The translations under genes were made by a program, and so were the position numbers. A stretch of 39,782 nt of DNA. Origin: a virus (Duplodnaviria > Heunggongvirae > Uroviricota > Caudoviricetes). The stretch lies in the IMG/VR virus record IMGVR_UViG_2687453623_000005, one strand, 5' to 3'. The stretch's first letter is position 1. Each line of letters opens with the position of its first letter. The notes under the pieces are model-generated. The model saw only the letters and a program-made list of their open reading frames with translations, had not been told where the DNA came from and did no database searches. Shown here in pieces: positions 6,083 to 8,953 of this stretch.

Positions 6083-8905
6083 ATGACGGCAGAGTACCTC
6101 AGGGACTGGCAACAACCGCGCCACGCAGTGGGGCGTGAAGGAACGGGGATCCCCGCTCCTGAATCCGCGCTTTCCTCCTGGCTGGATGCCTACCGGGCAG
6201 AGAACGAGCGCCGCCAGGAAATGGCTGATGCGGCGTTCTCAGCCACGCCGCTGGGCAACCTGATTAATAAAAGCCTGGACGCACAGGAAAAACAGGACAA
6301 AACCATCACACTGGCAGGAGACGCCAGAAAACAGGCACGTGGCGCGGTGGATGAAGCCATGGCCTCGCTGCGCCTGCTGCCGTCCTATCTGCGCGATCCG
6401 CTTATTCGCCACCTCTCCTTCCTGCGCAAAAAACAGGAAGCCGATCGCCGGAAAGGCAAAAAGAGCTGGCAGGCGGAACGCTATGCACGCGGAACCCTGC
6501 GCAAAATATTCGAACGTCTGGATAGCACTGACGGACGCTGGCTGACACCGGGTTATCGCTCCCTTGCCGGACGCGAACGCCTGGACGATTTGCTTTACCT
6601 GCCGCAGCTCAACAAACACCAGATACAGACGCTGGCCACCATGACGGCGGCGATGTTCAGCAGCACCTTCGAAAAACTCTGCGATGGCTTTGGCGCGACC
6701 GATGGCGAGCTGACCATGGATGTAACCCTGAAGGCGTATCAGATGCTGGCCCGCATGGCGTTACACCTGCACGCCATGCCTCCACATTATGACGCACTGA
6801 CAACAGACAAAGACCGGAGGAACGAACCGGACACGGAGCTGCTGCCGGGCGCAATCCTTCGCCTGACCTGTGCGGAATGGTGGAAACGCAAACTGTGGCT
6901 GTTACGTTGCGAGTGGAGAGAAGAACAACTCCGCGCCGCCTGTCTGGTTTCCAGAAAAACATCACCCTATCTGAGCCAGGACGCGTTAAGCGAGTTTCGC
7001 GCACAGCGCGAGAAAACACGCGATTTCCTGAAAAGTTTCATGCTGGAAAATGAAGACGGGTTCACGATTGATCTCGAGACAGTGTATTACGCGGGAGTAA
7101 GTAACCCGGTTCACCGTAAGGCAGAAATGATGGCCACCATGAAGGGACTGGAACTTCTGGCCGAAGCCCGTGGCGACAAAGCGGTGTTTCTGACTGTCAC
7201 CTGCCCGTCAAAATACCACGCCACAACGGAGAACGGTCATCCGAATCCCAAATGGAACGGGGCCACAATGCGCGACTCCAGCGATTACCTGGTTAACACG
7301 TTTTTTGCGGCGGTCCGCAAAAAACTGAACCGCGACGGCCTGCGCTGGTATGGCATCCGCACGGTGGAGCCTCATCATGACGGCACCGTGCACTGGCATA
7401 TGATGGTCTTTGCACATCCGGAAGAAATCGACACCATTGTGTCCCATACCCGCGATATTGCCATTCAGGAAGACCGCCACGAGCTGGGCAATGATATTAC
7501 TCCGCGCTTTAAGGTGGAGTATGTCGACGGCTCAAAAGGCACGCCAACCAGCTACATCGCCACCTACATCGGAAAGAACCTGGACAGCCGCGCCGTGGAT
7601 GGCATCGACCCGAAAACGGGCAAGCCACGCGTGGACCACGAAACCGGAAAATCAATGGCCGAGAGCGTGGAGCGCGCCATCGGCTGGGCGCGCCTTCACC
7701 GGGTCCGTCAGTTCCAGTTCTTTGGCATCCCCTCCCGTCAGGTGTGGCGTGAACTGCGCCGCCTTGCCAGCCAGATGGCACGCAATCCGGAAGGCCCGCA
7801 ACGGCTGAAAGATGATGCAATGGATGCGGTACTCGCTGCCGCCGATGCCGGGTGTTTTGCCACCTACATTGAAAAACAGGGTGGCGTGCTTGTTCCACGC
7901 AAGGACTACCTGATTCGCACCGCCTACGACCTCGCAGATGAGCTGAACGATTACGGCGAACAGAGCGTACAGATTTACGGGATCTGGTCACCACTCATCG
8001 GGGAATCCTCCCGTGTGTGCACGCATCCGGATAACTGGAAGCTGGTAAGACGTAAACCGGAAGCGGAAGACAGCGCCCGCGAAAATGGTTTTGACCTTCA
8101 GGGCGGCCCTGCCGCCCCTTGGACTCGTGGCAATAACTGTCCCCGTGTACAGGAAACGGACAACAACGGGACAGAACAGCCGGAAGAACGGCCAGCACCG
8201 TGGCCGCAGCTCCCTGACGGCGTTGAAGTGAACGAATGGATGCGCTCACTGAAACGACACGAACGCCGGGCGCTGATGCGTTCGCTTCGTGACAAACAGG
8301 CAAAAAACAGCAGCGATGAAATGCAGAGCTGGACACAGAGCCGCAAACAGCAGCGGCCTTTGCCTGATAACCACGAATTACTCGCTAAAGAATGGCGGGA
8401 GTCTGCTGAATCTCTCGGCCTGCATATCGGTGAACAACAGATGCAGCACCTGTTACGGGGCGGCAGTCTGTACGTTGACGGCAGCATCATTGCACCGCAG
8501 GGATTTGAAATTGTACGCAAACCGGATACCCGCCCGGACAGCCGAATCACGCAGCTCTGGCAGCGCCTGAGCCGTAATCATGGCGTAAGCAGCACGGAGA
8601 TCCGCCATAACCCGGTCGCCAGCTATCTGGCACAGCTGGGGGCATCAGACCCTGAAGCCGCCGCACGCCTGGCATCCACACTTCAGCAGGGCCAGAACAC
8701 CATGAAAACACCCGTTACCGTGCTTTCTGACATGCTGCGCGCCATCCGCGACGCAGAGCACGCACAGAGAATCAGTGAAACCACTGAACGCGCCAGCCGC
8801 AAAGCAGACCTGCTGCGGGGTGGCCTGACCAGTGGAAACAAAAAACAGACAGAAACGGGACTTACGAATCCCGTAAATGAGCAAAAAACGCGCAGCGATA
8901 TATGA
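6083..8905 (+). CDS. A: Rolling-circle replication initiator, P2 gpA family, 940 aa
   Basis: HxH metal motif (HWHMMVFAH) and paired tyrosines (SYIATYIGKN) typical of P2 A-type nickases. About 180 aa longer than P2 A at the C-terminus. Confidence 0.9.
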   Translation: MTAEYLRDWQQPRHAVGREGTGIPAPESALSSWLDAYRAENERRQEMADAAFSATPLGNLINKSLDAQEKQDKTITLAGDARKQARGAVDEAMASLRLLPSYLRDPLIRHLSFLRKKQEADRRKGKKSWQAERYARGTLRKIFERLDSTDGRWLTPGYRSLAGRERLDDLLYLPQLNKHQIQTLATMTAAMFSSTFEKLCDGFGATDGELTMDVTLKAYQMLARMALHLHAMPPHYDALTTDKDRRNEPDTELLPGAILRLTCAEWWKRKLWLLRCEWREEQLRAACLVSRKTSPYLSQDALSEFRAQREKTRDFLKSFMLENEDGFTIDLETVYYAGVSNPVHRKAEMMATMKGLELLAEARGDKAVFLTVTCPSKYHATTENGHPNPKWNGATMRDSSDYLVNTFFAAVRKKLNRDGLRWYGIRTVEPHHDGTVHWHMMVFAHPEEIDTIVSHTRDIAIQEDRHELGNDITPRFKVEYVDGSKGTPTSYIATYIGKNLDSRAVDGIDPKTGKPRVDHETGKSMAESVERAIGWARLHRVRQFQFFGIPSRQVWRELRRLASQMARNPEGPQRLKDDAMDAVLAAADAGCFATYIEKQGGVLVPRKDYLIRTAYDLADELNDYGEQSVQIYGIWSPLIGESSRVCTHPDNWKLVRRKPEAEDSARENGFDLQGGPAAPWTRGNNCPRVQETDNNGTEQPEERPAPWPQLPDGVEVNEWMRSLKRHERRALMRSLRDKQAKNSSDEMQSWTQSRKQQRPLPDNHELLAKEWRESAESLGLHIGEQQMQHLLRGGSLYVDGSIIAPQGFEIVRKPDTRPDSRITQLWQRLSRNHGVSSTEIRHNPVASYLAQLGASDPEAAARLASTLQQGQNTMKTPVTVLSDMLRAIRDAEHAQRISETTERASRKADLLRGGLTSGNKKQTETGLTNPVNEQKTRSDI

Positions 8906-8953
8906 AGCGCGCACAAAACAGGCAAAAACGGGATTTCAGAATCCCGTAAACGA
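8853..8953. repeat. Two 28-bp direct repeats (8853..8880 and 8926..8953), each with internal dyad ACGGGA-N8-TCCCGT
   Basis: Seen directly. First copy lies in the 3' end of A, second in the A/parM intergenic region. Confidence 0.6.

Follow-up and report, generated by a model that had tools for sequence, protein, structure and literature searches.

Two palindromic repeats at the gene A-parM junction of P88-like prophages: a probable parC-like site of a phage-borne ParM/ParR system

Organization of the gene A-parM junction

The stretch of DNA analysed here, IMG/VR record IMGVR_UViG_2687453623_000005 (39,782 nt, hereafter the window), is a P88-like prophage of the genus Xuanwuvirus, within the P2-like Peduoviridae, and the element in question is a repeated palindrome located where its replication gene A meets a pair of partition genes, parM and parR. 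Segment 8000-10400 is 100% identical to phage vB_EcoM-569R5 and 98.8% identical to P88. In P88, A, parM and parR are located distally in the block of rightward early genes starting with cox, and the genome also encodes an integrase and a C repressor. The A-parM junction (window 8780-9040) is found in 1303 of 5426 complete Escherichia coli genomes, including O104:H4 and O157:H7 strains, with at most three copies per genome; it occupies 1440 chromosomal places versus 2 on plasmids. Since the junction is almost always chromosomal, the system appears to serve an integrating phage and not a plasmid. In the literature searched, the partition genes of P88, Xuanwuvirus and phiSM are mentioned at annotation level only, and we found no description of this site.

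A sequence-only reading of the region had pointed to a duplicated 28-bp repeat at this place, and indeed AAACGGGACTTACGAATCCCGTAAATGA at 8853-8880 and AAACGGGATTTCAGAATCCCGTAAACGA at 8926-8953 are identical at 24 of 28 positions, both containing the dyad ACGGGA-N8-TCCCGT. A repeat search showed that the repeat is larger than this, with two 42-nt units that share 83% identity and start 73 bp apart (Table 1). Each unit contains a 20-bp palindrome, ACGGGAyT-N4-AATCCCGT, whose 8-bp arms are separated by 4 nt, and such units are present in the window only here. The family consensus of palindrome 1 is ACGGGATT-CACA-AATCCCGT, from which the window departs by the C at 8861, giving a weaker symmetry. 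Within the 39.8 kb, the motif ACGGGAN8TCCCGT is matched perfectly at exactly two places, namely the two repeat copies, and allowing 2 mismatches adds just two others, where 1.1 would be expected by chance. Copy 1 is contained in gene A, whose last 22 codons run through it, and copy 2 in the 76-nt spacer between A and parM, so the repeats stand directly upstream of the parM-parR pair.

Table 1. Coordinates of the genes and repeat elements around the A-parM junction (positions in the window; L068 is a phage locus with a very different early region, described in the text).
Feature	Position	Strand	Basis
Gene A, P2-type rolling-circle replication endonuclease, 940 aa	6083..8905	+	Pfam Phage_GPA 4.9e-131
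Putative parC-like region as a whole: both copies, the spacer between them and the leader with the parM Shine-Dalgarno	8839..8981	+	L068 homology edge; Hafnia identity profile
Repeat copy 1, 42 nt: A-rich tract CAAAAAACAGACAGAA, palindrome 1 and TAAATGA flank; in the 3' end of gene A	8839..8880	+	
Palindrome 1, ACGGGACT-TACG-AATCCCGT	8855..8874	.	
Central spacer between the units, holding the gene A stop codon (8903-8905)	8881..8911	.	
Repeat copy 2, 42 nt: A-rich tract CACAAAACAGGCAAAA, palindrome 2 and TAAACGA flank; intergenic, 29 nt before the parM ATG	8912..8953	+	
Palindrome 2, ACGGGATT-TCAG-AATCCCGT, perfect 8-bp arms	8928..8947	.	
parM, actin-like segregation ATPase, 319 aa	8982..9941	+	Pfam StbA_N 2.7e-82; ParM C-terminal domain 1.1e-68
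parR, adaptor and predicted DNA-binding protein, 104 aa	9946..10260	+	Pfam PF10784 1.9e-28

The repeats are linked to parMR and not to gene A

Near relatives of the window are 96-100% identical and carry little information, and a GTDB genome scan with ParM returned three loci only, at 97% identity or above and with no intermediate divergence. Diverged relatives were obtained by a ParR protein search, giving homologues of 47-74% identity, combined with contig look-ups. The intact loci of these homologues have the same A-parM-parR order and provided three useful diverged lineages. The window, Hafnia and Escherichia marmotae lineages all retain the A-rich flanks and both palindromes, 73 bp apart; the spacing is the same in nearly all loci, indels of 1-2 nt being rare. 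The stop codon of gene A, on the other hand, shifts relative to palindrome 1: in the window it follows the palindrome by 25 nt, in Hafnia (L018/L019) it falls within it, and in E. marmotae (L021/L022), where the A tail of L022 is frameshifted, it comes just before it.

The linkage to the partition genes was examined on a larger scale by scanning IMG/VR for the exact palindrome, which returned at least 120 loci. Among the 120 matches listed, parM adjoins the palindrome in 110, five contigs are cut just after gene A, and the remaining five are unrelated single chance matches in other sequence contexts; parM is therefore the neighbour in 110 of 110 informative loci, in one module with parR. Repeats in relatives devoid of parMR, which according to the sequence-only reading would speak against a role tied to ParR, did not occur among these matches, and the dyad in the same context was always beside parM.

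The most instructive locus is L068. Its A protein is 31% identical to that of the window and is followed by a 159-codon open reading frame, both palindromes being located in a 183-nt intergenic region. Aligned with the window, L068 is identical at 11 of 57 positions just upstream, and at 140 of 143 from the equivalent of ~8839-8840 on, into parM; the left edge of the shared module is the left edge of copy 1. The identity profile between a Hafnia relative and the window climbs at nearly the same place, ~8832. Another locus, L088, combines the same repeats with yet another different A tail. In L042 (505-3275), ~2.7 kb of unrelated DNA replaces A residues 763-940 together with copy 1 and the spacer, with a junction right at the A-tract of copy 2, which remains. 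These three loci, together with the shifting A stops, indicate that the repeats belong to the par module and not to gene A. The possibility of a functional site (ParR centromere or operator), left open by the sequence-only reading, is thus supported by the comparison, as the repeats travel with parMR beside a different or differently ended gene A. A separate rearrangement was observed in L146 (E. coli EC7518; 2153-2536), in which a deletion from the gene after cox to the end of palindrome 2 has left parM-parR with no upstream site.

This also bears on the 3' end of gene A. The second copy had been regarded as a decayed image of the C-terminal A codons in another frame. It does literally mirror these codons in another frame (73 mod 3 = 1), but merely as a by-product of the DNA repeat, and the proposed order of events should be reversed: the last A codons of the P88 lineage are best understood as gene A running on into the site of the par module, i.e. 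as a translated centromere, which would explain the odd look of the last 22 codons.

Selection on the two palindromes and their flanks

To compare the site with its surroundings, the window was aligned with the Hafnia lineage, in which a fraction of 0.71 of the synonymous third positions of parM are identical. The inner arms of the palindromes, GGGATT/AATCCC, are identical at 24 of 24 positions, and the A-rich tracts at 13 of 16 and 15 of 16; identity falls to 4 of 8 in the loops and 7 of 22 in the central spacer. A similar picture is given by nucleotide diversity, computed over 88 distinct P88-like sequences. The lowest value, 0.011, is found for the segment after palindrome 1, followed by the A-rich tracts (0.021 in copy 1 and 0.046 in the other) and the inner arms (0.034). 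The adjoining A coding tail (0.065) and the third codon positions of parM (0.070) come next, then the outer two arm positions (0.083), the central spacer 8890-8911 (0.084) and the loops (0.161). The constrained unit is an extended region of ~115 bp with two palindromic cores, and its selection is independent of A coding; judging from these sequences, the half-sites themselves are under purifying selection.

The central spacer is nearly constant in length and variable in sequence, with GCGATATATG and CATAAAACATG as alternative alleles. At 8890-8911, at least two alleles of equal length occur in relatives (...GCCGCGATATATGAAGC... and ...GCCATAAAACATGAAGT...), each flanked by the direct repeat CG(C/T)GC(A/C). 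A central GATATAT was considered as a possible -10 element and rejected, being replaced by CATAAAACATG alleles in many relatives and giving nothing in the promoter scan.

ParR as the candidate binder

The product of parR offers an obvious candidate for recognition of these half-sites. Alignment of the ParR proteins shows that all 16 homologues agree in most of the first 30 residues (MTTPTRRISFYLKP...), that the linker is strongly diverged (50-74% identity), and that a C-terminal ...NIQxxFPE tail is kept. Such a near-invariant N-terminus fits an unchanged DNA target. The nearest plasmid relatives of ParR are the StbB proteins of R1/IncF plasmids, with ~40% identity over residues 1-63, and the structure of pB171 ParR (2JD3) gives a weak match (E=0.012). 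Identity between the prophage proteins and those of plasmids does not exceed 52% for ParM and is ~40% for ParR. The upstream repeats of the plasmid relatives are unrelated in sequence to those described here, so no alignment of sites across families was possible; ahead of other members of this parM family, both direct and inverted repeats are present.

The variability of the ParR linker (window 10100-10240, codons ~55-95) deserves a separate comment. ParR proteins are 50-74% identical while the adjoining parM is 97-99% identical, and DNA identity within the linker is only 0.3-0.5 even between close relatives, the N-terminus and the last ~10 residues being conserved. This pattern suggests mosaic recombination or diversifying selection.

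A parC-like reading of the site

Taken together, position, linkage and conservation make it probable that the site is a parC-like centromere, and possibly also an operator, bound by ParR, and that it represents a palindromic variant of the R1 iteron design. The two 42-nt units with their A-rich flanks (~8839-8955) would then act as the cis-acting parC of a prophage type II ParM/ParR system. ParR would be a small adaptor of the ribbon-helix-helix type, of the R1/StbB family, pairs of whose dimers could occupy the two 20-bp palindromes, GGGRTT-N4-AAYCCC. As these are 73 bp apart, about 7 helical turns, both should face the same side of the helix, and ParR binding may extend from them to the conserved A-rich flanks. 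Once assembled, the complex would cap ParM filaments via the conserved C-terminal tail of ParR, and the capped filaments could move extrachromosomal phage DNA, i.e. infecting, excised or replicating circles. The site lies in the parM leader, and we see neither a separate promoter nor a terminator; parMR is thus probably transcribed with the early operon (cox to A), whose distal end it would form, and ParR on the site could also damp read-through.

Several points weigh against this interpretation. The role of ParR as the binder of the palindromes is one that we infer from position and linkage, and the same holds for the stoichiometry, the biological role and any operator role. The ParR N-terminus is invariant in all relatives found and offers no variation with which changes in the site could be compared, and the AlphaFold2 model of the ParR monomer is poor (pLDDT 57), too poor for a fold search, which is not surprising for a fold formed by the dimer only. 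The family is young, and the conservation statistics lean mainly on a few diverged lineages (Hafnia and E. marmotae). The promoter scan gave no sigma-70-like match on the plus strand at 8500-8981, and none in or between the repeats, though a weak or non-canonical promoter may exist; since, in addition, the spacer is unconserved, the operator or autoregulation part of the proposal is weak. The repeat search did not detect any array of 10-11-bp iterons of the R1 type, and the phasing of A-tracts at 10.25-10.5 bp is marginal (R=0.68, p ~0.06, versus other windows and shuffles). An R1-like iteron reading of the A-rich tracts, which look similar to R1 iterons by eye, was rejected on this ground, the phasing being not significant, and is retained only as a weak supporting feature. 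Because there is no 11-bp iteron array and no promoter-like match, and A-tract phasing is marginal, we class the site as one that would work like parC, yet is not an R1-type parC.

Alternative explanations

The palindromes could also act as hairpins, either as minus-strand terminators insulating gene A from antisense transcription or as plus-strand RNA stem-loops involved in processing, stability or attenuation. Indeed, the terminator scan flags both of them on the minus strand (8-bp stem, 4-nt loop, T-rich tail), hairpins of -9 to -10.7 kcal/mol with z-scores of -2.6 to -3.7 are predicted in RNA of either strand, and conserved stems with variable loops fit a hairpin as well. Nevertheless, the variation within the stems makes this unlikely. 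The frequent changes A8928G and C8945T produce C-A mismatches in the minus-strand stem of palindrome 2 and keep G-U pairs on the plus strand only, whereas C8861 of the window and T8869C of E. marmotae give mismatches in the plus-strand stem of palindrome 1 and keep G-U on the minus strand only, so that neither strand is consistently protected. In E. marmotae each palindrome has one GGGATT and one GGGGTT half-site, in opposite arms, and in Hafnia the outer 2 bp are lost from one side only. Compensatory changes were seen in 0 of 16 stem pairs among 36 distinct sequences, a result that, at such low divergence, is not decisive, and a plus-strand RNA role may exist. Furthermore, no minus-strand gene is transcribed towards the site, parM and parR being on the plus strand and the convergent cargo genes downstream of parR ending at 10344 with an inverted repeat of their own. 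An intrinsic terminator is thus not supported on either strand, as the plus strand has no U-tract and common variants break the minus-strand stem. The absence of minus-strand transcription towards the site and of a plus-strand U-run, together with the inconsistent one-sided changes, favours sequence-specific recognition of duplex half-sites, as far as can be judged from the alignments. Such half-sites might be read by a regulator of parMR other than ParR, of host or phage origin, the true ParR sites being confined to the A-rich, R1-like tracts. The A-rich flanks are conserved at least as well as the palindrome arms, and ParR of R1, the nearest plasmid relative, binds A-rich direct iterons (PMC2241845). 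This explanation is about as improbable as that of hairpins: the palindromes accompany parMR into L068, a phage with a very different early region, and the shared module has no other DNA-binding gene. We know of no E. coli regulator whose motif is recognized in the palindromes.

Two further explanations connect the repeats with the neighbouring sequences and not with partition, and both appear very improbable. The location of the repeat at the junction between gene A and the parMR cassette had raised the idea of a target duplication, and the repeat could accordingly be a functionless scar of cassette insertion, left by target-site duplication or recombination; that the C-terminal ~140 residues of A have no match outside Xuanwuvirus among phage records would agree with a recombined junction. 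Yet a target-site duplication leaves one direct repeat at each end, whereas here both copies are found to the left, are transferred jointly as the left end of the cassette in L068, and have no counterpart after parR. It would also leave the internal palindrome of each copy unexplained, and the half-sites are conserved at 24 of 24 positions where synonymous sites have diverged by 29%. The idea of an origin-associated element fares no better. A binding or loading site for the A protein at the rolling-circle origin could be expected within or next to gene A, where the repeat lies, and gene A acts in cis in P2-like phages. However, the P2/186-type nick region aligns at ~8100-8150, ~720 bp upstream of the repeats, and the annotated rep_origin of phage 186 corresponds to window 8085-8150, overlapping the only DNA island common to many P2-like phages. 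Moreover, the palindromes are absent, among the matches listed, from P2-like phages without parMR, and are retained unchanged beside an A protein of only 31% identity.

Comparison with known partition systems

The element is real, under selection and linked to par, and its most likely identity is that of a type II centromere in palindromic form. Its nearest functional parallels are parC of plasmid R1, srpC of the SXT/R391 integrative and conjugative elements (ICEs) and alpS of prophage CGP3. In R1, parC has a 39-bp core with the promoter, flanked on each side by five direct 11-bp iterons, each iteron being bound by one ParR dimer, and ParR binding forms both the partition complex and the operator (PMC2241845). 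The location directly upstream of parM-parR is common to R1 and other type II loci (PMC2241845; PMC4489591), and the P88-like site shares with R1 parC this location, the arrangement of two repeat blocks around a central spacer, and an A-rich composition on the parM sense strand. The two ParR proteins also belong to the same Pfam family, R1/IncF StbB being the nearest plasmid homologue. The differences are, however, considerable. In place of ten 11-bp iterons, the prophage site has two 42-nt units, each around a 20-bp palindrome; in place of the 39-bp promoter core, it has an unconserved spacer of ~31 bp with no recognizable promoter. Its left unit overlaps the 3' end of a replication gene, and its carrier is an integrating prophage and not a plasmid.

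The srpMRC system of SXT/R391 ICEs resembles the prophage system in being a ParM-type partition locus of a normally integrated element, and is expressed only with the activation programme of the element (PMC4489591). Its repeats are located in the 5' leader of the actin-like gene and are bound by a small adaptor (PMC4489591), the same leader position as here. Nevertheless, SrpR has no recognizable similarity to ParR, whereas the prophage ParR is a clear PF10784 member; srpC is made of four direct repeats, and its carrier is an ICE and not a phage. In Corynebacterium prophage CGP3, the actin-like protein and adaptor of the AlpAC/alpS system are induced early and needed for efficient phage DNA replication (PMC4446434). 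The actin-like family, the adaptor and the motif (TTAAnnG) are unrelated to those of the P88-like system, and CGP3 lives in a Gram-positive host. Among phage records, a ParM homologue (48% identity) is otherwise present only in phage-plasmid D6, which also has repeats upstream of parM, though these (TCTCAAATTTATCTCA) are unrelated to the P88-like palindromes. D6 is a P1-like plasmid prophage, in which partition is expected.

On this background, a broader scenario can be put forward, which we regard as possible but somewhat doubtful as a whole. An R1-family ParR may have switched from direct 11-bp iteron arrays to two phased 20-bp palindromes, and the resulting mini-centromere would be fused to the 3' end of a rolling-circle gene, ~720 bp from the origin, in an integrating P2-like phage that is present in roughly one in four complete E. 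coli genomes. ParMRC could there move or separate excised and replicating phage circles, or keep an infecting genome in dividing cells before integration, rather than maintain a plasmid. If ParR does bind, the site would be a compact palindromic form of the type II plasmid centromere in a chromosomally integrated P2-like prophage. With its 115 bp it is a well-delimited target for learning what use an integrating phage makes of an actin-like segregation machine, and a natural case in which to study how ParR proteins of the ribbon-helix-helix type alter the architecture of their centromeres.

Other features of gene A and of the region downstream of parR

Within gene A, window 8085-8160 retains 85-90% DNA identity in many otherwise diverged P2-like phages of Klebsiella and Salmonella. 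It aligns with the rep_origin of phage 186 as a GC-rich segment followed by GGCAATAACTGT, and is probably the A-protein nick site, or ori. For the C-terminal portion of the protein, residues ~800-940 (window 8480-8905, ~140 aa), the phage records of P2-like phages other than Xuanwuvirus yield no match at protein level, and the lineages differ in where this portion ends, with a stop before, inside or after palindrome 1. Since diversity of the A tail near its end is close to neutral, the tail may be dispensable.

Downstream of parR, an inverted repeat, GGCACCCT-N7-AGGGTGCC, is present at 10310-10332, before the end of the convergent gene for a 280-aa protein. Judged by eye it could be a bidirectional terminator; the terminator scan left it unflagged, as it has no T-run. 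Two minus-strand cargo genes converge on parR (window 10344-11723), encoding the 280-aa protein, with just a weak Csx27-like match in PADLOC (1.1e-5), and a DUF4760 protein. In relatives, the cargo between parR and the portal gene is very different and includes IS elements, a ClpX-type zinc-finger protein and an AAA_15 ATPase, and the parR-portal interval looks like a hotspot for variable cargo.

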